Positions 14,671 through 26,372 are shown, numbered from the stretch's first letter. The stretch: DNA of 64,000 nt from an uncultured bacterium (GCA_937907535.1 CALCID010000119.1:69243-133242), one strand, 5' to 3'. The notes: generated by a model not told the origin, from the letters alone. Numbers and translations: made by a program.

Positions 14671-15780
14671 ATGAGTGCATCGCCGTCCGGTTCCGGCGCG
14701 GCGCCCGTCGGCGTATCGCCCGCAGCCGACCCGCAGCCCCAGCCGTTCTCCGTATTCCTCAAGCAGATCCTCGCCGGGCAGGACCTCTCGGCCGACGACG
14801 CGGAGGCCGCGTTCCGCATCATCATGGAAGGCCGGGCCACCCACGCCCAGACCGCAGGGCTCCTGGTGGCGCTCCGGTCCAAGGGCGAGGCGCCCAGTGA
14901 GGTGGCCGGGGGGGTGCGGGCGCTCCGGCAGGCCATGGTCCGCCTGCCGCTCAATGGCGCCGGGGACGTGGTCGACACCTGCGGCACCGGCGGCGGCCGC
15001 TTGACCACCTTCAACATCTCGACCGCCGCCGCCTTCGTCGCAGCCGGTGCCGGGGTGCGGATCGCCAAGCACGGCAACCGGTCCCACACGTCCCGCTCGG
15101 GCAGCGCGGACGTGCTCGAAGCGCTCGGCGTGCCCATCGACATCGATCCGGAGCGCATGCCGGAGGTCCTGGAGGAAGCCGGGATCGTGTTCATGTTCGC
15201 GCCCCGGATGCACCCCGCCATGCGCCACGTGGCGCCGGTTCGCCGGGAGCTCGGCGTGCCGACCATCATGAACGTGCTCGGGCCGCTCACGAACCCCGCC
15301 GGAGCGCGGCGGCAGGTGGTGGGTGTGTCGGATCCGGGATTGCTGGAACTCGTGGCGGGCGCGCTCCTCGAGCTCGGGCACGAACACGCGCTGGTCGTGC
15401 ACGGCGAGCCCGGCATGGATGAGCTCAGCCCGATCGGCGCGACGGACGTCATCGAGGTCCGGGACGGCACGCTCCGTCGCTACCGCCTCGACCCGGCCGA
15501 GCGACTCGGCTGGGATGGCCTCGACCCCGACGGGCTCGCCGGCGCGGACCCCGCGCACAACGCGCGCGTGATCGAAGACATCCTGGCCGGTCGCTCGAAA
15601 GGCGCCGCCCGGGCCGCCGTGGCCCTCAACGCGGGGGCCGCGATCTACGTGGCGGGCAAGGCCCGAACCCTCGAGGAGGGCGTGGCCGACGCCGAGCACG
15701 TCATCGACGCCGGCCTCGCCGCCGCCGCCCTCGACCGGCTCCGCGCCGCGAGCCGCCGGGCGGTCGTCCCGGCGGCCTGA
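14671..15780 (+). CDS. trpD: Anthranilate phosphoribosyltransferase
   Basis: LVALRSKGE..DTCGTGGGRLTTFNISTAAAFVAAGAGVRIAKHGNRSHTSRSGSADVLEALG. Confidence 0.93.
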   Translation: MSASPSGSGAAPVGVSPAADPQPQPFSVFLKQILAGQDLSADDAEAAFRIIMEGRATHAQTAGLLVALRSKGEAPSEVAGGVRALRQAMVRLPLNGAGDVVDTCGTGGGRLTTFNISTAAAFVAAGAGVRIAKHGNRSHTSRSGSADVLEALGVPIDIDPERMPEVLEEAGIVFMFAPRMHPAMRHVAPVRRELGVPTIMNVLGPLTNPAGARRQVVGVSDPGLLELVAGALLELGHEHALVVHGEPGMDELSPIGATDVIEVRDGTLRRYRLDPAERLGWDGLDPDGLAGADPAHNARVIEDILAGRSKGAARAAVALNAGAAIYVAGKARTLEEGVADAEHVIDAGLAAAALDRLRAASRRAVVPAA

Positions 15781-15787
15781 CCGCGGA

Positions 15788-15802
15788 CCCGGACGGTCCG
15801 GG
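15788..15802 (+). terminator. Short GC palindrome just after trpD
   Basis: CCCGGAC g GTCCGGG, 8 nt after the stop. The loop is very tight and there is no U-tract. Confidence 0.2.
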
Positions 15803-16073
15803 CGCCGGATGAACGAATGCGCGGCGAACCACGAGGGCCCGCCGCGCATACATGATTCTGCCGGTCCGGACGCCCTCCGCCCCGGCTACTCGACCGTCCC
15901 CGCCGCGTCCGTGCGGGGCCCGGCGTTCCGCGCCCGGGCTGCCGATCAGTTCGCCGAGATCACCGCCCGGATCGTCCAGGGACCGCGGATCGGCGCATCC
16001 GACGGGCACAGCAACACCACCGTCAGCCCCCGACGCGTGCTACGGCCCACGACGAACGGTATCTTCGCTATCA

Positions 16074-16691
16074 TCAGTACCTCCTGATCACGCCGATCAC
16101 GATCCCCTGGATCCTCACGTCCTCCGGCCGGAAGTACAGCGGCGCCATCGTCGGATTCGCCGGCTGGAGACGCACACGCCCGTCCGGTTCCCGGTAGAAC
16201 TTCTTCACCGTCGCGGAATCCCCGTTCACCAGCGCCACCACCATCTCCCCGTTCCGCGCGATCTGGCGGGAGCTCACGATGATGTAGTCCCCATCCCGGA
16301 TCTGCTCGTCGATCATCGAGTCTCCCTTCACCCGCAGCACGTAGTGCTCGCCGCCGCGGCCGATCATGTCCTCCGGGACCGCAATGGTCTCCTGCTCCTG
16401 GACCGCTTCGATCGGCACGCCCGCGGCGACCGTCCCGTACAGCGGGAGCTCGACCGCGCCCGTCCGCATGCCGACGGGAACCAATTGGATCGAGCGACTC
16501 TCGTTGTAGGCCTTCCGGATGTATCCCTTCCGCTTCAGATTCTCCAGGTGCTCGTGCACGGTGGCCAGCGACCCGAAGCCGAAGTGCTTCGCGATCTCCT
16601 CGAAGCTCGGCGCGTACCCGTGCTCTTCGAGGTACTCCTGGAGGAAGTCCAGGATCTCCTTCTGGCGTCTGGTGAGTGGCATCATGTCCAT
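16074..16691 (-). CDS. lexA: LexA repressor (SOS regulator, S24 peptidase)
   Basis: MPLTRRQKEILDFLQEYLEEHGYAPSFEEIAKHFGF (wHTH), Ala-Gly cleavage context VAAGVPI, catalytic VKGDSM and a downstream Lys (TVKKF). Confidence 0.93.
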   Translation of the reverse strand: MDMMPLTRRQKEILDFLQEYLEEHGYAPSFEEIAKHFGFGSLATVHEHLENLKRKGYIRKAYNESRSIQLVPVGMRTGAVELPLYGTVAAGVPIEAVQEQETIAVPEDMIGRGGEHYVLRVKGDSMIDEQIRDGDYIIVSSRQIARNGEMVVALVNGDSATVKKFYREPDGRVRLQPANPTMAPLYFRPEDVRIQGIVIGVIRRY

Positions 16692-17096
16692 CGTCGTGCG
16701 ATCTTAGAGTCCAGGGCCCGGGGGTGGTGCCGCGGGTGCGGCGATCGCCGGGGCGGACGCCCCGGATTGGCTCCCCTCGACCGGTGGCGGTTCTTCCACG
16801 CCGATCCACGATCCGTCCACGCCGGGGTGTTGCCGTGTCCAGCCGGCAGCGGCCGCGGGCCATTCGCCGGGCCGCCCCGTCCGACCGCCCCACCTTCTGC
16901 CGGGCCCGAAGGGCCGGAGCCGGTCCACCGGGGCGCGACTCGCGGCACAGCGTGCCGGCGTCGGCGACCGGGCTTTCGCGGCCGGTCGGCCCTCACCCTC
17001 GCCGGGTACCGGCCGTTCCGGCCGGCCCGGGGCGGGACGCGGGCGAAGAAGAACCGAAAGACAAGGTACCCGAAAGGGAACCGAAGCGCAAGAGGG

Positions 17097-17924
17097 ATGA
17101 TGAGCGTACTGGACCGGATCGTGGAGACGAAGCGGGCGGAGGTGGCGGCGCTGGCGCCGCGGGCCGCGGAGCTGCGGCGCGCGGCGGAGAGCGCCGGGCA
17201 GACGCGCCGGTTCTCGGATGCGTTGCGGCTCGGGGATCGGGTCGCGGTGATCGCGGAGGTCAAGCGTCGGTCTCCGTCCGCGGGGTGGATCCGGCCGGAC
17301 GCCACGGCGGCGGAGGTGGCGGGTTGGTACGAGGCGGCGGGCGCTTCGGCGATCAGCGTGCTGACGGACGGCGAGTATTTCGGGGGCTCCCTCGACGACC
17401 TCATGGCGGTGCGGAGCAGGGTGGGGGTGCCCGTGTTGCGGAAGGACTTCGTGCTGGACGCGGTGCAGCTCTGGGAGGCGCGGGCGGCGGGCGCGGACGC
17501 GGTCCTGCTGATCGTGCGGATCCTGGACGACGCGGCGCTGGCGGATCTCCTCTCGCTGAGCCGGGAGCTGGGTCTGTCCGCGCTCGTGGAGGTCCACGAT
17601 GAGCGGGAGCTGGACCGGGCGCTGGAGGCCGGGGCGGAGGTGGTCGGGGTGAACAACCGGGACCTGGCCACCTTCCGGACGGATCTCGCGGTGACGGAGC
17701 GGCTGGCGGCGCGGGTCCCCGCGGACCGGATCCTGGTGGCGGAGAGCGGGATCCGAGCGGCTGCGGACGTGGACCGGATGGGCGCGGCGGGGGCGGACGC
17801 GGTGCTGGTCGGGGAGAGTCTGATGCGGGAGTCCGATCCGGGGCTGGCCGCGCGGGCGCTGGTGGGGCGGCCGCGCACCGGGCGGTTGGGCGTGGCGGTC
17901 CCCGGCGGCGTCCGTCCGGAGTGA
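17097..17924 (+). CDS. trpC: Indole-3-glycerol phosphate synthase
   Basis: From ATG 17097: IAEVKRRSPSAG..SVLTDGEYFGGS..LRKDF..LVEVHD..VGVNNRDL..ESG. Confidence 0.92.
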   Translation: MMSVLDRIVETKRAEVAALAPRAAELRRAAESAGQTRRFSDALRLGDRVAVIAEVKRRSPSAGWIRPDATAAEVAGWYEAAGASAISVLTDGEYFGGSLDDLMAVRSRVGVPVLRKDFVLDAVQLWEARAAGADAVLLIVRILDDAALADLLSLSRELGLSALVEVHDERELDRALEAGAEVVGVNNRDLATFRTDLAVTERLAARVPADRILVAESGIRAAADVDRMGAAGADAVLVGESLMRESDPGLAARALVGRPRTGRLGVAVPGGVRPE

Positions 17925-17930
17925 GTCGGC

Positions 17931-18686
17931 ATGGCGGCGAGCTCCCGCGACGGGATGATCCCGGTGCGACCCTTCGGGTCCGAGATCGGCAGGGCCGGGG
18001 GGCGGGCGGTCGAGGTGAAGATCTGCGGGCTGTGCCGCCCCGAGGACGCAGCGATGGCGGCGGAAGCCGGGGCCGACTACCTTGGGGTGGTGCTCGCGCC
18101 CGGCTATCGGCGCACGCGGACCGTGGCGGAGGCGGAGGCGATCTTCGCGAGCGGGAGAGGGGCGGCGAAGGTCGGGGTGTTCGTGGACGCGCCCCTCGAT
18201 GAACTCGTGGCCGTGGCGGAGCGGCTCGGGCTGGACGTACTCCAGCTCCACGGATCGGAGTCCGCCGAGTACGCCGCGCGGGTGAGGGAGGCCGGGCCGT
18301 GGCGCGTCTGGAAGGCGGTGCGGCCGCGGACGGGCGCGGAGTTCGCGGCGGCCGTGGCCCGCTATCGCGACGTCGTCCACGGAATCCTCGTGGACGGCTG
18401 GAGCCCGGAGGCGCCGGGCGGGACCGGGACGCGGTTTCCGTGGGCCGAGATCTCGGCCGAGCTGCAGCGGCTCCGCGGCGCGGGGCCGCGGCTGATCGCC
18501 GCGGGCGGGCTCACGCCGGAGAACGTGGCCGAGGCGGTCGCCCGGCTGGCGCCGGACGTGGTGGACGTGAGCTCGGGCGTGGAGCGGTCCGTGGGGGAGA
18601 AGGATCCCGCGCGGGTGCGGGCGTTTGTCGATGCCGCGCGGAGCGGCGGCGCGGGCGGCGCGAGAGGCGCCCGGCCGCAGGAATGA
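17931..18686 (+). CDS. trpF: N-(5'-phosphoribosyl)anthranilate isomerase
   Basis: [45 protein letters not shown]. The N-terminal ~27 aa are atypical, so the true start may be internal. Confidence 0.85.
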
Positions 18687-18700
18687 GGAGTCGAACGGAA

Positions 18701-19915
18701 ATGTCGCAGTCTGTCGTGGAGGGCGCGACGCGCGCCCCTGGTCGGTTCGGGCGGTTCGGTGGCCAGTACGTGCCGGAGACGCTGATCGCCGCCCTGGAAG
18801 AGCTGGAGCAGGTCTACGAAGCCGCCCGGAACGATCCGTCGTTCTGGGCGGAGCTGGAGGACCTGCTGACCCACTACGTGGGCCGTCCCACGCCGCTCTA
18901 CCGGGCAGACCGGCTGGGCGAGGCGGCCGGGGGCGTGCGGGTTTACCTGAAGCGGGAAGACCTGAACCACACGGGCGCGCACAAGATCAACAACACCCTC
19001 GGCCAGGTGCTGCTGGCCCGGCGCATGGGGAAGCGCAGGATCATCGCGGAGACCGGCGCCGGCCAGCACGGCGTGGCCACCGCCACGGTGTGCGCGCTGT
19101 TCGGGCTGGACTGCGTGGTCTACATGGGGGCCGAGGACGCGCGCCGGCAGGCGCTGAACGTCTACCGGATGGAGCTGCTCGGCGCCGAGGTCCGGACGGT
19201 CGAGTCGGGTACGCGTACGCTCAAGGACGCCACGAACGAAGCGATCCGGGATTGGGTCACGAACGTGGCGGACACCCATTACATCATCGGCTCCGTGGTC
19301 GGGCCGCACCCGTACCCGCGCATGGTGCGGGACTTCCAGGCCGTGATCGGCAAGGAGGCGCGGGCCCAGCTCGAGGCGGCGGAGGGCCGGCTCCCGGCGA
19401 AGGTGGTCGCGTGCGTGGGCGGCGGGTCGAACGCCATGGGGATCTTCCATGCGTTCGTGGACGAGCCGTCCGTGGAGCTGATCGGGGTGGAAGCGGCCGG
19501 AGACGGGGTCGAGACCGGGCGGCACGCGGCGTCCCTCACCGCCGGCCGGCCGGGCGTGCTCCACGGCTCCTACAGCTATTTGCTCCAGACGGAAGACGGG
19601 CAGGTCGCGCCGGCGCACTCCGTATCCGCCGGCCTTGACTATCCGGGCGTGGGGCCCGAACATGCATACCTGAAGGACGTTGGCCGCGCCCGCTACGTGA
19701 CCGTCACCGATCGTGAGGCGCTGGACGCGTTCGGGACGCTGGCACGCCTCGAAGGGATCATTCCGGCGCTGGAAAGCGCCCATGCCGTCGCTTACCTGCT
19801 TCGTGAAGGGCCGAACTGGGTCGGGGCCGGTCCGATCGTGGTCTGCCTGAGTGGCCGGGGGGACAAGGACGTGGCCCAGGTCGCCGCGCTCACCGGCAAG
19901 GACCTGGCACCGTGA
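18701..19915 (+). CDS. trpB: Tryptophan synthase beta chain
   Basis: From ATG 18701: [44 protein letters not shown]. Confidence 0.95.
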
Positions 19916-19934
19916 CCGACAGCGCTTGTAGCAC

Positions 19935-21671
19935 GTGACGGAACCAGTACCACCGACCACCGGGGTACAGTCGGCCGCGGAGCCGGATCTGGATCTCTCC
20001 GCATCCGAGGTGGCCGACCTGCTCCTGCAGCTCGCCAAGAGCGTGCGGGCGTTCCAGATCTACGAGTCGAACAACCCGGTCTATCAGCGTTTCGTCGACG
20101 GCCTCAAGAACACGCTGGCCGACCTCTGGCGCAGGACCTCGGCGTTGGAGCTGATCGTGGACGAGGCCGGCTTCCGCTATGGCGAGGAGGTCGTCGCGCC
20201 GGCGGACAGCCGGGACAGCCTGCCCTACCTCTTCTACAAGGACGGGGTCCGCCATCTCAAGCTCCTCCCGGGCTTCGAGGACGAGATCGAGAAGTTCCTC
20301 GCGGTGGTGCACAAGGCGCGCGTCACCGACCGGATGGGCGACGACCTCGTGACGCTCCTCTGGGAGCAGGATTTCGGGTCGTTCCAGTACGGGTACGTGG
20401 ACATCCTGGCGGAGGGGCTCGAGCTGCCGGGGGTGCCGGACCCGAGCACGCCGGCGATCGGGCGGGAGCGGATCGCGGCGGACCTCATGGGCGACCTGGA
20501 GCCGGCGTGGTCGCCGGGCGAGGCGTCGGCGGGGGACATCGTCGCATCGATCACGCGGGAGGACTTCGACGAGACCCTGTACTTCCTCGACGACGCCGAG
20601 CTGCAGACGCTGCAGCAGGAGGTCGAGCGGGAGTGGAGCCGGGATCTCCGGACCGACGTCCTGAACGCGCTGTTCGACCGTCTGGAGGACGGCAAGTCGG
20701 AACGCCAGACGGAGATCCTGGACATCCTCCGCCAGCTCCTGCCGAACTTTCTCGCCCGGGGCGAGCTCGCGGCGGCCACGCACGTGTTGCGGGAGCTGGA
20801 CGCGATCCTGGCGGCGAATCCGCCGAGGCTCGGGGAGGCGCAGCGAGTGGCGGTCGGGCGGCTGCTGGACGAGATGAGCGACCCCGAGGTGCTGGGGCAG
20901 CTGATCGATTCGATCCAGAGCGGCGGGGTGGTGGTGGACGTGCAGGACCTGGCCGTGTTCCTCGAGCACCTCCGGCCGATCGCGCTGCCGGTCCTGATCC
21001 GCGCGGCGGAGACCGCGAAGTCCCAGGCATTGCACGAGCGGCTGCCCCCGGCCATCGAGCATCTGGCGAGGCAGCAGGTGAGCCACCTCGTCGGACTGCT
21101 CGAGTCGCCGGATGCGACGGTGGCGAGGGGCGCGGCGCGCCTCGTCGGCCGGCTGCGCATTGCGTCGGCCGCGCCCGGGCTCGCGAAGCTCATGGACTCG
21201 CCGGATGTGGACGTGCGTCGCGCCGCCGTGGCCGCTCTTGCCGACCTGCGGTCCAGCCAGGCCATCGAGCCGCTCCAGCGCGCGCTGGAGGACCCTGACC
21301 GGGACGTGCGGATCACGGCCGCGCGGGGGCTCGGCGAGCTGCGGATCCAGAGCGTGCGCGAGCGGTTCGAGGCGATCATCAAGGGGCGCGGCCTGCGCGA
21401 GGCGGATCTGACGGAGAAGCGCGCCTTCTTCGAGGCCTACGGTTCCCTGGCCGGGAACGAGGGGGTCCCCTTCCTGGACAGGATCCTGAACGGCCGCAGT
21501 CTGCTGCGGCGGCGGGAGCCGTCGGACATGCGGGCGTGCGCCGCCATCGGTCTCGGCAAGATCGGCTCGCCGGCGGCCCGGGCCGCGCTCCAGCGGGCCG
21601 GGAGCGATGCGGACCCCGTCGTCCGTTCGGCGGTGAACCGGGCGCTGCGCCGGGAGGCGACCGGCACATGA
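19935..21671 (+). CDS. HEAT-repeat protein with an uncharacterised N-terminal module
   Basis: The C-terminal half has HEAT/PBS-lyase-like units (SPDVDVRRAAVAALADLRSSQAIEPLQRALEDPDRDVRITAARGLGEL; DADPVVRSAVNRAL). GTG start 19 nt after the trpB stop. The stop overlaps the next start (ATGA). Confidence 0.75.
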   Translation: MTEPVPPTTGVQSAAEPDLDLSASEVADLLLQLAKSVRAFQIYESNNPVYQRFVDGLKNTLADLWRRTSALELIVDEAGFRYGEEVVAPADSRDSLPYLFYKDGVRHLKLLPGFEDEIEKFLAVVHKARVTDRMGDDLVTLLWEQDFGSFQYGYVDILAEGLELPGVPDPSTPAIGRERIAADLMGDLEPAWSPGEASAGDIVASITREDFDETLYFLDDAELQTLQQEVEREWSRDLRTDVLNALFDRLEDGKSERQTEILDILRQLLPNFLARGELAAATHVLRELDAILAANPPRLGEAQRVAVGRLLDEMSDPEVLGQLIDSIQSGGVVVDVQDLAVFLEHLRPIALPVLIRAAETAKSQALHERLPPAIEHLARQQVSHLVGLLESPDATVARGAARLVGRLRIASAAPGLAKLMDSPDVDVRRAAVAALADLRSSQAIEPLQRALEDPDRDVRITAARGLGELRIQSVRERFEAIIKGRGLREADLTEKRAFFEAYGSLAGNEGVPFLDRILNGRSLLRRREPSDMRACAAIGLGKIGSPAARAALQRAGSDADPVVRSAVNRALRREATGT

Positions 21672-23116
21672 GCACGCCGCAACCACCCATCGTCCGGGGC
21701 GGCGGGTCGCTCCAGGTCCAGGGTCAGGCGCTGCTCATCGGCATGCACGCCGCGGCCCAGGCGCTGAAGCTCTATCCGGTCGAGAACGCCGCCGTGCAGA
21801 AGGCGCTGGATGAGCTGCACCGCACGGTCATGCGGGTGATCGAGCGCGAGGGGACGCTCGAGCTGAAGCTCATCGGGGACTTCGTGTTCCTGAACGATGC
21901 CCGGCTGCGGCTCGACCTCTCGAACTACACGGCCGTGTCCTTCTTCGGGAACGCGCTCGCCCGGCACGGCGTGGGCACGGTCACCGTGGACCCGGCCGTG
22001 TCCCGGAACGAATGGGCCCCGTTCCTGAGCCTGCTCCTCCAGGACCCGCCCGAGTCCGCCGACCCCTTCGAACGGTTCACGGCCCGGCTCGCCAATACGC
22101 CGGTCTCCAGGATCACGGTCTCGCCGACGCGGGACCCGGACCAGCGCCCGGGCACGGACACGCGCTCCCGGGAGCTCGCGAAGAAGACGTACGTTCAGTC
22201 GGTCCAGGTCGCCCGCGAGGTGCTCACCGATTTCCGGCTGGGCAAGGCGGTCAACGTCCGGCGAGTCAAGCGCGCGGTGCAGAGCATCGTCGATCAGGTG
22301 CTCAACGACGAGAGCTCCATGATCGGCATGACCGTGCTGCGCGACTTCGATGAGTACACGTTCACGCACTCCGTGAACGTGTGCATCTTCAGCGTGGTGC
22401 TGGGGCAGAAGCTCGGCCTGTCCAAGCTCCAGTTGTACGAGCTCGGACTGGGGGCGCTGTTCCACGACATCGGCAAGATGCGGATCGACCCGGACATCAT
22501 CAACAAGGCGGAAGGCCTCACGGAGGACGAGTTCGACGCGATCCGCGAGCATCCCACGGAAGGTCTCCTGGCGCTCTTCAACCTGAACGGCTTCGGGGAG
22601 GTGCCGTACCGCGCCATGCTGATGGCGTACGAGCACCACATGAAGATCGACCTCACGGGCTACCCGAGGAACAGGCGGAAGCGGACGCCGTCGCTCTTCA
22701 GCCGGATCGTCGCGGTGGCCGATGGGTTCGACGCGGCGACGTCGCGCCGGAGCTACCAATCCCTGCCGTGGCCGCCCGACCGGGTCCTCGCCGAGATGCA
22801 GAACAACCCGAAGCGCGGGTTCGACCCGCTCGTGGTCAAGGCCTTCATCAACGTCACGGGCGTGTATCCGGTGGGCACGCTCGTGATCCTGGACACCTAC
22901 GAGCTGGCGGTGGTGTACGAGCCGAATCCGGATCCGAGCCGCATCCACCAGCCGGTGGTCAAGATCATCGCGGATCCGATGGGGATCCCGCTGGCGGAGC
23001 CGGTGCTCGCCGACCTGTCGGAGATCGACCCGGTCACCGGCCATCCGAAGCGAACGATCATCAAGACGACCGACCCCGAGAAGTACGGTATCAACGTTGG
23101 CGAATACTTCCTCTGA
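21668..23116 (+). CDS. HD-GYP domain phosphohydrolase (cyclic-dinucleotide phosphodiesterase family)
   Basis: HSVNVC..ALFHDIGK..IREHP..YEHHMKIDLTGYPR..VADGFDAATSRRSY. ATG 21668 overlaps the HEAT stop. Confidence 0.85.
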   Translation: MSTPQPPIVRGGGSLQVQGQALLIGMHAAAQALKLYPVENAAVQKALDELHRTVMRVIEREGTLELKLIGDFVFLNDARLRLDLSNYTAVSFFGNALARHGVGTVTVDPAVSRNEWAPFLSLLLQDPPESADPFERFTARLANTPVSRITVSPTRDPDQRPGTDTRSRELAKKTYVQSVQVAREVLTDFRLGKAVNVRRVKRAVQSIVDQVLNDESSMIGMTVLRDFDEYTFTHSVNVCIFSVVLGQKLGLSKLQLYELGLGALFHDIGKMRIDPDIINKAEGLTEDEFDAIREHPTEGLLALFNLNGFGEVPYRAMLMAYEHHMKIDLTGYPRNRRKRTPSLFSRIVAVADGFDAATSRRSYQSLPWPPDRVLAEMQNNPKRGFDPLVVKAFINVTGVYPVGTLVILDTYELAVVYEPNPDPSRIHQPVVKIIADPMGIPLAEPVLADLSEIDPVTGHPKRTIIKTTDPEKYGINVGEYFL

Positions 23117-23906
23117 GACAGACCGCCTGTCCTCCCGGTTCGACGCCTGGCGCGCGGCGGGGCGGCGGGCCCTGATTCCCTACGTCACCGCGGGCTACCC
23201 CCGTCCGGCCGACACCGTGGAACTGCTGCACGGCCTCGTGGACGCGGGCGCGGACGTGATCGAGCTGGGCGTTCCGTTCAGCGATCCGCTGGCGGACGGT
23301 CCCACGATCCAGCGGTCGACCCAGGCGGCGCTGGAGGCGGGCGTGACCCTGGAATGGACGCTGGACGCGCTGGCGCGGTTCCGGCGGGAGCGGGACGCGA
23401 GCGTCGTCGTCTTCAGCTACCTGAACCCGGTGCTGGCGTACGGCATCGAGCGCTTCCTTGCGGACGCCGTGGCGGCTGGCGCGGACGGCTTCCTCCTCAC
23501 CGACCTGCCGTACGGGTGCGATCCCGAGTTCGAGGCACTCGTGGAGGCCTCGCCCATCCCGCTGATCCGGCTCCTTGCGCCGACCACGCCGATCGACCGG
23601 GCGGTGGCGATCGCCCGGCGCGCGCGGGGATTCCTTTACTACATCTCCCGCACGGGCGTGACCGGCGCGACCCGCGACCTGCGCGCGGACCTCGCCACGG
23701 AGGTGGCCGCGCTCCGGGGCGCCACGGACGTGCCGATCGCGGTCGGGTTCGGGATCTCCGGGCCCGAACAGGCGGCGTGGGTCGCCCAGGTGGCGGATGG
23801 GGTGGTGGTGGGCAGCGCCCTGATCGAGGCGCTGGACCGGGGCGGCATCCCTGAGGCGACGTCGTTCCTCCGCACCCTCCGCGAAGCGATCGACCGCGTG
23901 CGGTGA
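23097..23906 (+). CDS. trpA: Tryptophan synthase alpha chain
   Basis: ALIPYVTAGYP..IELGVPFSDPLADGPTIQ..YISRTGVTG..VGFGIS..VVVGSA. The only in-frame start upstream of the conserved N-terminus is TTG 23097, which lies 20 nt inside the HD-GYP ORF. Confidence 0.9.
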   Translation: MANTSSETDRLSSRFDAWRAAGRRALIPYVTAGYPRPADTVELLHGLVDAGADVIELGVPFSDPLADGPTIQRSTQAALEAGVTLEWTLDALARFRRERDASVVVFSYLNPVLAYGIERFLADAVAAGADGFLLTDLPYGCDPEFEALVEASPIPLIRLLAPTTPIDRAVAIARRARGFLYYISRTGVTGATRDLRADLATEVAALRGATDVPIAVGFGISGPEQAAWVAQVADGVVVGSALIEALDRGGIPEATSFLRTLREAIDRVR

Positions 23907-23986
23907 GGCCGGTTCCGGCGCCGGCGCGCGGGTGCCGGCGCTGCCGAGCGACAACCGGACCCTGCGCCGGTCAGCGGAACGGAATG

Positions 23987-24004
23987 TCGAGCGCTTTCGC
24001 TCGA
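23987..24004. terminator. Small hairpin between convergent trpA and cytochrome c genes
   Basis: TCGAGCG cttt CGCTCGA (7-bp stem, 4-nt loop), followed on the plus strand by tagacactcgtttgtt. Confidence 0.3.
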
Positions 24005-24184
24005 TAGACACTCGTTTGTTCCGCCAGGATGCGCGCCCGTACGACCCGATACGGGCCGGTTCGGCGCCCGCGGGACCCGGCGCCGCCCCGCCCGGTCCCC
24101 GCGATCCCATCCAGCGCTACGTCCCGATTCCGGATGACCATGGACGGGCGCAGACCGCCGGGGCGGCGTGCTGTACAGCGGGCC

Positions 24185-24598
24185 TCAGCTCCCCCCGCCC
24201 GCACCCCCGTCACCCGTGCGGGAGAGCGTCCAGACGTAGGCCGCGACCGCCCGCAGCTCCTCGTCCGACAGCTTCGCGCCGCCCATCTCCGGCATGGGCG
24301 CGGGGAACTTGACGGGCTTGGGCACGCCGGAGCGCACGAGCGCCACGATCTCCTCGAAGCCCCCCTTGATGTGCAGCCACTCCCCGCCCTTGAGCGCCGG
24401 GCCTAGCATCGTGCCCTCGCCGGACGCGCCGTGACAGACGAAGCAGTTGCCGCGACCCCGGAAAATGGCCGCGCCGGCGTCGATCTGGGCCGGGCCGATG
24501 CCCGGCGGGAGGCCGTTCGCATCCGCCTGCTGAGCGGCGGCGGACAGGGGCAGGACGAATATCACTGCTGCCGCGATCGCGGCTGGAAGACGTCGCAT
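24185..24598 (-). CDS. Class I c-type cytochrome, secreted
   Basis: Signal peptide MRRLPAAIAAAVIFVLPLSAAAQ, heme motif CFVCH, and a distal Met region (APMPEMGG). GAGGAG SD upstream. Confidence 0.85.
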   Translation of the reverse strand: MRRLPAAIAAAVIFVLPLSAAAQQADANGLPPGIGPAQIDAGAAIFRGRGNCFVCHGASGEGTMLGPALKGGEWLHIKGGFEEIVALVRSGVPKPVKFPAPMPEMGGAKLSDEELRAVAAYVWTLSRTGDGGAGGGS

Positions 24599-24692
24599 CG
24601 ATCACTCCTCTGTCTTCGTGTGCTGATTCGGCTCGCCGCGGGCCGGCCGGAACCCCATCTCCGCCGGGGGCGCGGCCCGAAATCACGGCGCG

Positions 24693-26372
24693 TCATGACA
24701 CCCGGAGACGCCGCTCGAGTTCCGGGTCCGGCTCCACGAAGAGCGTGCGGACCCGCTCCGGCACCACCAGCCCGGGCGGCGCCTTGCGCGGTTTCCGTAC
24801 ATACTTGCGGCGGGTCCAGTCCACAGCAACCGTCCCGGACGTGCGCGCGCGGCTGTGCAGCGCCGCCAGCACCGCGGCCTCGACCAGGTCCCGGCGCGGG
24901 GGATTCGCCTCCGGGTCGCTCCAGCGGAGGATCACGTGGGAGCCGGCCACGTCCCGGGCGTGCAGCCAGATGTCGTTCGGCGACGAGTGGTGGAAGGTCA
25001 ACTCGTCGTTCGCGCGGCTGCTCCGCCCGACCCGGGCCTCGAGCCCGCCGCTCGTGCGGTAGCGACGGTAGGGGAGGGCAGGGGCCTCCCCGCCGCCCGC
25101 GCCCTTGCGCTCGCCCGGGGCCTCGCCGATGACCGCGGCGAGCTCCGCCGCCGCGGCGGGATCGGTCCGCGCCCGCTCGACGAGGGCTTCCAGCACTCGC
25201 CGTTCCGGCTCGGCTCGCTGGATCAGGTCCGGAATCCGCTCCGCCGCCCGTTCCCGCTTCCTCGCCCGTTCGTAGATCCTCTGCACGTTGTCCGAGGGCG
25301 GGAGGGACGGGTCCAGCGCCACGGTCAGCGTCCCGCCCTCGAAGTCGGAGATCTGCACCTCCGTCATCCCCTTGCGCACCAGGTACAGCTGGCTGAGGAG
25401 CAGGTCCGCGGACCGGCGCAGCGCCGCCGCCTCGGGCGCCGCCTCCGCCAGCTCCCGGCGCATCCGGTCGATCCGGGCATCCAGGCGGGCCAGACGGGCC
25501 CGGGCCCGCTCGAGGAGCTCGGCCGGCACCGCGGGCGCCGCGGGCTCCGCCTCACCTTCGACCGGACCCGCAGCAGCGGCAATGGCGTCCAGTAGCGTGG
25601 GATACCGCGCTTCACAGACCCCGCCCGGCGGGACCGGGTACGGCTGTCGCGCGCCGCCCAGGTTCAGCACGCACGGCTCCGCAGGCCCGAACCGGACGAG
25701 CGCCCGGTAGCGTTCGTACGCCCCCTCCAGGGCGGCGGGGTCGGCGCGGATCGCGGCCTCGCCGAGCACCGGCGCCGCGTTCAGGGGGCTCATGTAGGCG
25801 ACGTCGCGGATCAACCTCCCCGGCCGGTCCTCCGGCGCCACCGGCTCCAGCAGCCCGCGCCACTCTTCCGGGGTGAGCGGCGAGTCCAGCCCGGCGCGCC
25901 GCTGCGCCGGCGGCGGCGAATACGCCGCGCCGGGCGCCAGGCGCCGACCCCCCGCCTCCCTCCGCCACAGCACCGCCAGGATCCGATCCTCCTCGTCCAG
26001 CGCCAGCACGTTCCACTGGTTCGTCATCAGCTCCACGACGACGCGGCCTCCGGTCACCCGGACCTCCAGCAGCCGCTCGTCGGGCACCGCTCGGACGTCA
26101 ACCACCCGCACCCGCCGGCGGTACGGCGTCGCGTCCCGGTCGAACCGCGCCCGGCGCCGCCCGCCGGCCGCGTCCGCCGGCGCCGCCAACCGCACCGCGC
26201 CACGCCTCGGGTGCAGCTCCCAGATCAGCGCCAGGTCGCCGAAATCGAACACCGCCCGCCGCGGATCCGAGTCCAACCGGAGGGCAAGGAGATGGCGTCC
26301 TGCGAGGCGCTCGGAGAGCTCCGCCGCAAGGTAGCGGACCAGGATCGGATCGTAGCGAATCGGGTTTGACAC
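24693..26372 (-). CDS. NFACT-family protein (RqcH/FbpA-like, DUF814 NFACT-R domain)
   Basis: C-terminal ..ELTFHHSSPNDIWLHARDVAGSHVILRW.. is the NFACT-R/DUF814 signature. A coiled-coil middle segment is present. GTG start at 26372. Confidence 0.75.
   Translation of the reverse strand: MSNPIRYDPILVRYLAAELSERLAGRHLLALRLDSDPRRAVFDFGDLALIWELHPRRGAVRLAAPADAAGGRRRARFDRDATPYRRRVRVVDVRAVPDERLLEVRVTGGRVVVELMTNQWNVLALDEEDRILAVLWRREAGGRRLAPGAAYSPPPAQRRAGLDSPLTPEEWRGLLEPVAPEDRPGRLIRDVAYMSPLNAAPVLGEAAIRADPAALEGAYERYRALVRFGPAEPCVLNLGGARQPYPVPPGGVCEARYPTLLDAIAAAAGPVEGEAEPAAPAVPAELLERARARLARLDARIDRMRRELAEAAPEAAALRRSADLLLSQLYLVRKGMTEVQISDFEGGTLTVALDPSLPPSDNVQRIYERARKRERAAERIPDLIQRAEPERRVLEALVERARTDPAAAAELAAVIGEAPGERKGAGGGEAPALPYRRYRTSGGLEARVGRSSRANDELTFHHSSPNDIWLHARDVAGSHVILRWSDPEANPPRRDLVEAAVLAALHSRARTSGTVAVDWTRRKYVRKPRKAPPGLVVPERVRTLFVEPDPELERRLRVS

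Follow-up and report, generated by a model that had tools for sequence, protein, structure and literature searches.

Tryptophan synthase is a channelling enzyme made of two halves, and the genes that code for them, trpB and trpA, are a textbook case of adjacent, coupled genes, lying side by side and usually being translationally coupled in the trpEDCBA operon of E. coli and the trpEDCFBA operon of B. subtilis. Why, then, should a bacterium keep two genes for predicted signalling proteins between them? The question is raised by a 64,000-nucleotide (nt) stretch of DNA from an uncultured bacterium (GCA_937907535.1, CALCID010000119.1:69243-133242), referred to below as the window, in which positions are counted from the first letter. 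An initial annotation, made from the sequence alone, noticed that an open reading frame (ORF) for a HEAT-repeat protein and one for an HD-GYP phosphodiesterase are inserted between trpB and trpA at 19935-23116, and proposed from this a working link between second-messenger turnover and the synthesis of tryptophan (Trp) and indole. We have followed the locus through the phylum to which the bacterium belongs, and we consider it probable, if by no means certain, that the two genes are an ancient, self-contained module that has become locked inside the distal trp operon and is expressed with it.

Results

Two genes separate trpB from trpA

The host of the window is a Gemmatimonadota bacterium with a genome of 4.06 Mb that is 99.5% complete. 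The genes concerned form a string that reads, in order, trpC, 6 nt, trpF, -4 nt, trpB, 19 nt, HEAT, -4 nt, HD-GYP, -20 nt, trpA, where negative values denote overlaps (Table 1). The initial annotation had placed the end of trpB at 19915, the start of the HEAT ORF 19 nt further on, an ATGA at 21668-21671 and the TTG start codon of trpA at 23097, and all of these positions agree to the base with those found here; its placing of the pair between trpB and trpA was borne out by matches to Pfam and NCBIfam profiles, which confirmed the gene identities. Outside the pair, the start sites of trpC (ATG 17097) and trpB (ATG 18683) were refined. GTG 19935 is the only start codon in the open frame of the HEAT ORF; for trpA, the in-frame stretch from the preceding stop to where the Trp_syntA match begins offers a single one, TTG 23097, which aligns with the ATG starts of TrpA in relatives.

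It can be seen that trpB and trpA are not directly adjacent, a separation of 3,181 nt with two ORFs lying between them. When the whole genome was searched, exactly one trpA and one full trpB match were found. The trpB1-type beta and the alpha genes are genuine, single-copy and co-oriented in one string, and the GC content is even throughout (65-76%), with no compositional break.

The arrangement is shared across the phylum

Relatives with the locus belong to the Gemmatimonadota, mostly to the order Longimicrobiales, and in 40 close relatives the HEAT gene was found ~1.5 kb from trpA wherever the contigs allowed this to be seen. When 20 fetched regions were mapped by tblastn, 16 proved to carry the pair, and 15 of these had the order trpC-trpF-trpB-HEAT-HD-GYP-trpA, with identities of 40-49% for the HEAT protein and 55-65% for the HD-GYP protein. 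Likewise, among 69 loci drawn from named Longimicrobiales and Gemmatimonadota records, one genome per species, nearly all of those with enough flanking sequence share the order. A single-copy HEAT orthologue is present in 300 of 401 genomes sampled from the phylum. A further 50 genomes were sampled from this survey, 43 of them having trpA, and in 34 of these 43 the HEAT gene lies beside trpA (~1.5 kb), in families f1, f2, f4, f5, f8 and f9; the mapped relatives add family f3, and the same order was found in at least seven family-level groups.

A survey of trpB-trpA synteny had been called for in the initial annotation. Both flanks were readable in 70 of 91 non-redundant loci, part of this sample having been picked on purpose from exceptions; 57 of the 70 read trpB-HEAT-HD-GYP-trpA, 12 have the pair alone and one has the pair followed by trpA. 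The shared order is seen in dozens of independent assemblies, including closed chromosomes. We conclude that the arrangement is phylum-wide, where it might have been thought peculiar to this genome, and that it is old, the module having taken its place between the two synthase genes ahead of the divergence of the sampled families.

One 3.8-kb contig labelled Candidatus Eisenbacteria (L037; JAWOLC010000075.1) also carries trpB-HEAT-HD-GYP. The TrpB that it encodes falls within the Longimicrobiales clade, beside that of L041, and the contig is probably mis-binned or mislabelled.

The stop/start overlaps recur

The 4-nt overlap between the HEAT and HD-GYP genes is kept in 60 of 84 non-redundant loci, some of which have no trp genes. 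In 61 of 65 loci trpA starts before the HD-GYP gene has ended, the overlap being 23 nt in 35 of them and 32 nt in 14. The trpB/HEAT junction is looser: of 73 loci, 12 have a 4-nt overlap there, 33 are spaced by 0-30 nt and 27 by more. In family f9, which is the most divergent (HEAT identity ~25%), there is a 4-nt overlap at all three junctions. This packing is far beyond chance, and dozens of independent assemblies, closed chromosomes among them, show the same geometry at the junctions. Conserved stop/start overlaps are the usual signature of coupled translation and count as evidence of it, not proof; indirectly, they support the view that the six genes would behave as one tightly packed unit.

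The HD-GYP protein is predicted to be a Bd1817-type phosphodiesterase

The HD-GYP protein is laid out as an N-terminal domain, a long helix, a catalytic domain (residues 229-397) and a beta-rich C-terminal domain (residues 400-470). It passes the curated Pfam profiles HD_5 (57.7 bits, cut-off 27.2) and HD (39.4 bits, cut-off 22). The HD..HH..GYP residues noticed at the outset are indeed present, and H234, H266, D267, K270, H295, H323, H324 and G331-Y332-P333 do not vary among 32 orthologues, at least 90% of which also have D352, as do all 17 of a closer set. The metal-binding set H...HD...H...HH...D, the substrate-contacting Lys and the GYP motif align with those of PmGH and V-cGAP3. The protein departs from the full HHExh[D/N]GxGYP signature (Galperin and Chou) in that it reads EHHMKIDLTGYP, with Met in place of Glu after HH in 17 of 17 close orthologues and LT in place of G-x.

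By sequence, the best solved relatives are V-cGAP3 (5Z7C), PmGH (4MCW) and PA4781 (4R8Z), with E values of 2e-29 to 2e-19 against PDB profiles. An AlphaFold2 model of the protein (predicted local distance difference test score, pLDDT, 85.8) gave fold matches to PmGH (4MCW), Bd1817 (3TM8), DvhD (9RBZ) and PA4781, and the whole Bd1817 chain could be superimposed over 341 aligned columns with a template-modelling (TM) score of 0.62 normalised to the target. The Pfam family DUF3391 matches residues 96-199 with 27.4 bits, just under its cut-off of 27.8. The beta-rich C-terminal domain (window 22865-23078) has no match in Pfam; it is a conserved domain of ~85 residues with five predicted strands.

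The genome contains ~10 GGDEF genes and six HD_5 genes. The GGDEF genes indicate that cyclic di-GMP (c-di-GMP) is made in this bacterium, so that it is plausible as a substrate, and the two sets together show that c-di-GMP signalling exists here and that the HD-GYP protein is one divergent paralogue among several. On the strength of the conserved residues and fold matches, we conclude that the protein is a predicted variant of the Bd1817-type phosphodiesterases, in which a DUF3391-like N-domain precedes the HD-GYP domain, with its predicted catalytic residues intact and with c-di-GMP as its most likely substrate.

The HEAT protein shares the N-terminal domain of the enzyme

The HEAT protein comprises an alpha/beta N-domain (residues 23-154), a disordered linker (residues 161-215) and an all-helical solenoid (residues 220-577) that ends in HEAT repeats of the phycobilisome (PBS)-lyase type. 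A fold search with the whole AlphaFold2 model (pLDDT 87.7) returned generic solenoids only (alphaRep, ARM). Searching residues 1-345 of 32 orthologues against Pfam gave no family in any of them; in a large protein library this region is matched by 4,701 cluster representatives at E <= 1e-3, a number that falls to 820 at E <= 1e-30.

As direct BLASTP between the two N-termini reached only E 0.02, a profile-profile comparison was needed. This showed that residues 25-128 of the HEAT protein are homologous to residues 18-127 of the HD-GYP protein (hhalign probability 90.7%, E 1.3e-6), and thus that the N-terminal domains of the two proteins are related. The shared domain, of ~105 residues, is uncatalogued, and both predicted models have the same order of helices and strands within it. 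A HEAT protein that bears the N-domain of an enzyme and is encoded in overlap with it is, we infer, most simply a partner that pairs with that enzyme, and the data suggest a heteromer of the HEAT partner and the HD-GYP protein formed through the shared domain.

The pair outlasts the trp genes around it

In twelve loci the trp genes on either side have been lost or replaced, and the pair is still there. In L044, L048 and L095-L102 both trpCFB and trpA are gone and the pair stays, directly divergent from lexA and with its 4-nt overlap intact; in these cases the trp genes are either absent or found elsewhere in the genome as a divergent trpDCFBA. Several genomes have lost the native trp genes and carry a contiguous trpDCFBA elsewhere (L110-L113 and L022), whose proteins diverge far more than those of the native operon. 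When a TrpB tree was built by maximum likelihood, these copies fell outside its well-supported native clade; they are therefore replacements from elsewhere, which suggests transfer. The contiguous native trpBA genes that lack the pair (L023, L024, L025 and L114) nest in this tree among the split operons, from which it follows that the pair has been excised at least three times.

Seven sampled genomes (G105, G136, G139, G177, G203, G338 and G345) have the pair and no trpA, absence being judged at E <= 1e-20 in genomes that are 93-100% complete. These seven may be tryptophan auxotrophs.

Family f7 has the pair in another conserved neighbourhood, apart from both trp and lexA, between a gene for a PduO-type cobalamin adenosyltransferase and SnoaL/GlcF-like genes, and the native lexA-trpCFBA locus of this family (L114) is without it. 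The full f7 order (L103 4708-10943; L104 681-10341) is FAD-linked oxidase, PduO-type adenosyltransferase, HEAT, HD-GYP, in some cases a hydrolase, SnoaL-like protein and GlcF-like Fe-S protein.

The pair thus outlasts the synthase, and the synthase works without the pair; the job of the module seems to be separable from tryptophan synthase. The working link to Trp and indole put forward in the initial annotation does not sit well with these loci: the pair persists without native trp genes in 12 of them, at least three lineages have lost it and f7 keeps it in an unrelated context. On present sequence evidence we regard a mechanistic link of the pair to Trp or indole as unsupported.

A repeated element lies upstream of the string

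The lexA gene is divergent from trpC in nearly all related loci, and from the HEAT gene where trpCFB has been deleted. In ~80 loci the spacer between lexA and trpC carries a double direct repeat, consisting of CCGAA-N6-CCGAA, ~10 nt with TA-A, and a second CCGAA-N6-CCGAA, the two units being offset by 26 nt. The repeat generally stops ~10 nt short of the trpC start. The copy in the window reads (G/C)CGAA-N6-CCGAA ... TAC-CCGAA-N6-CCGAA and ends 11 nt before the trpC ATG. Some 150 exact units were found in 92 loci, nearly all of them in this spacer and on the operon strand. None occurs at the trpB/HEAT, HEAT/HD-GYP or HD-GYP/trpA junctions of these 92 loci, and no copy with one mismatch or fewer is present within 17100-24000 of the window. 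After trpCFB deletion, the element is found upstream of the HEAT gene. That it lies only upstream of the string gives indirect support to a single transcription unit.

Genome-wide there are 22 exact single units, several of them just upstream of unrelated genes, ssb, tyrS and fabH among them, and one beside a tRNA gene, and a degenerate copy precedes recA. The idea that the element is a LexA box is weakened by the units before tyrS and fabH and beside the tRNA gene, and the element is a direct repeat, not a palindrome. We read it instead as a promoter or leader, and it may be an element of this kind that is specific to the lineage.

A scan for consensus promoters and terminators over 16000-25500 on both strands found nothing, the consensus being uninformative for this phylum, and at E <= 1 Rfam gave no leader, T-box or riboswitch within 15700-24700. 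The lexA/trpC spacer is 55-200 nt long in most loci and ~400 nt in the window, where the extra ~350 nt (16692-17040) are GC-rich.

Beyond lexA, the order trpD, lexA (opposite strand), trpC is found across the phylum (window 14671-17097; L105-L109 and L114) and is as old as the HEAT/HD-GYP insert. The next confirmed gene 3' of trpA in the window is an NFACT-family gene on the minus strand, convergent with the string. In its ancestral form the locus has trpD, lexA (opposite strand) and trpC-trpF-trpB-HEAT-HD-GYP-trpA in that order, followed by NFACT and panB.

Table 1. Genes, junctions and control element of the trp string in the window.
Feature	Position	Strand	Basis and remarks
lexA	16074..16691	-	Pfam LexA_DNA_bind + Peptidase_S24; divergent from the trpC-...-trpA string
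Double direct-repeat element, candidate promoter/operator of the whole string	17043..17085	+	Conserved in relatives
trpC (indole-3-glycerol-phosphate synthase)	17097..17924	+	Pfam IGPS, E 8e-87; start ATG 17097
trpF (phosphoribosylanthranilate isomerase)	17931..18686	+	Pfam PRAI, E 7e-43
trpB	18683..19915	+	TIGR00263, 636 bits; ATG 18683; overlaps trpF stop by 4 nt
HEAT-partner gene, 578 residues	19935..21671	+	Pfam HEAT_2, E 4e-20, residues 385-466
HD-GYP phosphodiesterase gene, 482 residues	21668..23116	+	Pfam HD_5, E 1.6e-15
ATGA, HEAT stop over HD-GYP start	21668..21671	+	GGGAGG 10 nt upstream
trpA start (TTG) over HD-GYP 3' end, 20 nt	23097..23116	+	Junction sequence
trpA, last gene of the string	23097..23906	+	Pfam Trp_syntA, E 1.8e-80; TIGR00262, 224 bits

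Discussion

An operon that would hold its passenger in place

The explanation that we favour is that of a self-contained module held within the operon around it. The window would then represent the ancestral Gemmatimonadota form of the distal trp operon, with lexA divergent from it, and the string is likely to be co-expressed and coupled. The module would be transcribed from the one conserved control element upstream of trpC. The HEAT partner would be non-catalytic, having the same N-domain as the enzyme followed by a HEAT solenoid, and the near-universal overlap of the two genes, together with the shared domain, suggests that the two proteins would be synthesised jointly and bind each other by way of that domain. 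Translation of trpA would be started by ribosomes that reach the end of the HD-GYP gene, and the phosphodiesterase would be made whenever the cell makes the last Trp enzymes. The synteny would persist mainly because genes inside the operon cannot leave without losing their promoter or breaking the expression of trpA.

Several observations weigh against this explanation. The spacer between trpB and the HEAT gene exceeds 30 nt in 27 of the 73 loci and reaches 516 nt, which leaves room for an internal promoter in some lineages, and there may be internal promoters inside trpB or the HD-GYP gene. The invariant HHM in place of the canonical HHE means that full activity of the enzyme is not certain, and the formation of the heteromer is only inferred. 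The phylum-wide gene order can also be read as purposeful co-expression under selection, with which 'lock-in' is itself compatible.

Alternatively, the pair might act as a sensor or regulator of the tryptophan pathway, so that the turnover of the second messenger would be mechanistically tied to the synthesis of Trp and indole. For example, the N-domain might bind indole, Trp, indole-3-glycerol phosphate (IGP) or serine, or the solenoid might dock on TrpA or TrpB. Such a direct link would account for a position between the two subunits of one enzyme that has been kept phylum-wide, with coupling that runs into trpA; two uncharacterised N-domains could bind a ligand, and according to a published view, genes that have come to lie within trp operons might be of help to the pathway (PMC2395257). 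However, the pair is intact and still coupled in genomes that have no trpA or have a foreign contiguous trp operon elsewhere, native trpBA works without it in at least three lineages, in f7 it sits between cobalamin adenosyltransferase and SnoaL/GlcF-like genes, and no feature at the level of residues or domains points to Trp or indole, so that we consider a direct link unlikely. A fuller version of the same idea, that the N-domain senses the status of the Trp pathway (indole, IGP, serine or Trp) or the solenoid docks on TrpA/TrpB, and that serial coupling from trpB through HEAT and HD-GYP to trpA fixes the ratio of synthase to phosphodiesterase, strikes us as a shade less likely again. If it were true, the level of c-di-GMP, and so attachment or motility, would be tied to Trp/indole flux throughout the phylum, and in lineages without trp genes it would be a secondary role for which the module has been retained.

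The gene order might equally be a frozen accident, in which one promoter, inside or after trpB, serves the pair and another, inside the HD-GYP gene, serves trpA, the genes being neither co-transcribed nor translationally dependent on each other. The variable trpB-HEAT spacer, of up to 516 nt, would permit this; a negative promoter scan says little about it, as the consensus used may not be that of this phylum, and after trp deletion the pair is predicted from the loci to be expressed with no trpCFB upstream. In those trp-less loci, however, the pair simply adjoins the same lexA-proximal CCGAA element, which occurs at no internal junction in 92 loci, and the start of trpA within HD-GYP in 61 of 65 loci and the triple 4-nt overlaps of f9 are the signature of coupled translation; a frozen accident therefore seems to us a doubtful explanation, to about the same degree as the fuller version just described. 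That the pair belongs with lexA, as part of a DNA-damage unit under LexA control, with a share in the divergent control region and with the trp genes as passengers, we hold to be very unlikely. It is true that lexA is divergent from the string in nearly all loci and still directly adjoins the HEAT gene in all sampled loci where trpCFB was lost in place, and that a degenerate CCGAA copy lies upstream of recA and an exact unit upstream of ssb. Against this, the element is a direct repeat and not a palindrome, LexA control is putative only, exact units also stand before tyrS and fabH and beside a tRNA gene, as expected of a general promoter or leader, and the f7 pair is away from lexA while the native f7 lexA-trpCFBA locus (L114) lacks it. 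Lastly, an assembly chimera, or a paralogous trpA with a canonical trpBA elsewhere, had been named in the initial annotation as what could undo its proposal. Nothing was found in support of either, and both were rejected on the grounds of the single trpA and trpB in a 99.5%-complete genome, the same order in relatives (dozens of independent assemblies and closed chromosomes among them) and the uniform GC content; the probability that the arrangement is an artefact is negligible.

We return, then, to a module locked inside the distal trp operon. A phylum of common soil bacteria has kept trpB and trpA 3.2 kb apart for a very long time, and the comparative data provide a clear case of operon 'lock-in', in which the module persists after the surrounding operon has gone. 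Should the string be a single transcript, the amount of phosphodiesterase would follow the expression of the last Trp enzymes, and the synthesis of TrpA would depend on the translation of an unrelated gene, making the locus a natural test case for the distance over which translational coupling can be relayed. The DUF3391-like N-domain, moreover, also exists fused to a HEAT solenoid with no HD-GYP domain, which points to an unstudied two-protein form of HD-GYP system.

Relation to known systems

The locus resembles the canonical trpB-trpA pair in that its trpB1-type genes are single-copy and on one strand and in that the trpA start overlaps the preceding stop. It differs in that the preceding gene encodes an HD-GYP protein and trpB is 3.2 kb away, so that two unrelated ORFs would have to relay any coupling between alpha and beta. 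Burkholderia (trpF-trpB-X-trpA), some Flavobacterium and one Sargasso Sea contig are also reported to have non-trp genes between the two (PMC2395257, citing Xie et al. 2003). The likeness to such trpB-X-trpA operons is that non-trp genes lie between the two synthase subunit genes in an otherwise ordinary trp string. The insert described here, however, consists of two signalling genes that are overlap-chained to each other and to trpA and are conserved across a phylum, whereas the X insert of Burkholderia is, we presume, an unrelated single gene. A search of the full-text literature for HD-GYP together with tryptophan synthase, and for Gemmatimonadetes, found no published description of a trpB-HEAT-HD-GYP-trpA arrangement.

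Residues 357-520 of the HEAT partner match HEAT_2, HEAT_PBS and alphaRep, and in this the protein is like the PBS-lyase-type HEAT proteins (CpcE/CpcF, NblB, alphaRep). It scores below the NCBIfam cut-offs for CpcE, NblB and CpcF, with 34.8 (330), 34.6 (300) and 20.3 (220) bits, respectively (cut-offs in parentheses), and shares only the type of repeat with them; its N-terminal two thirds, unlike these proteins, belong to no catalogued family.

A further close parallel is provided by the Bd1817 family, DUF3391-HD-GYP proteins whose architecture is that of almost all DUF3391 proteins, and in which the DUF3391 domain may promote dimer formation; two other members of the family, PA4108 and VC2497, are reported to hydrolyse c-di-GMP (Galperin and Chou, bioRxiv 10.1101/2021.11.05.467447). 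Like Bd1817, PA4108 and VC2497, the HD-GYP protein of the window is predicted to be cytoplasmic, its N-terminal beta/alpha domain being joined by a long helix to the HD-GYP domain, and the metal ligands, the c-di-GMP-contacting Lys and the GYP motif are kept. It differs from that family in having an extra helical hairpin in the N-domain and HHM for HHE, and from Bd1817 in having an additional beta-rich C-terminal domain of ~85 residues, which Bd1817 lacks. A further difference from the Bd1817 family is that here a separate HEAT protein bears the same N-domain. We conclude that the overlap-chained, two-gene signalling insert, its phylum-wide conservation and a HEAT partner that carries the N-domain of the enzyme appear to be new.

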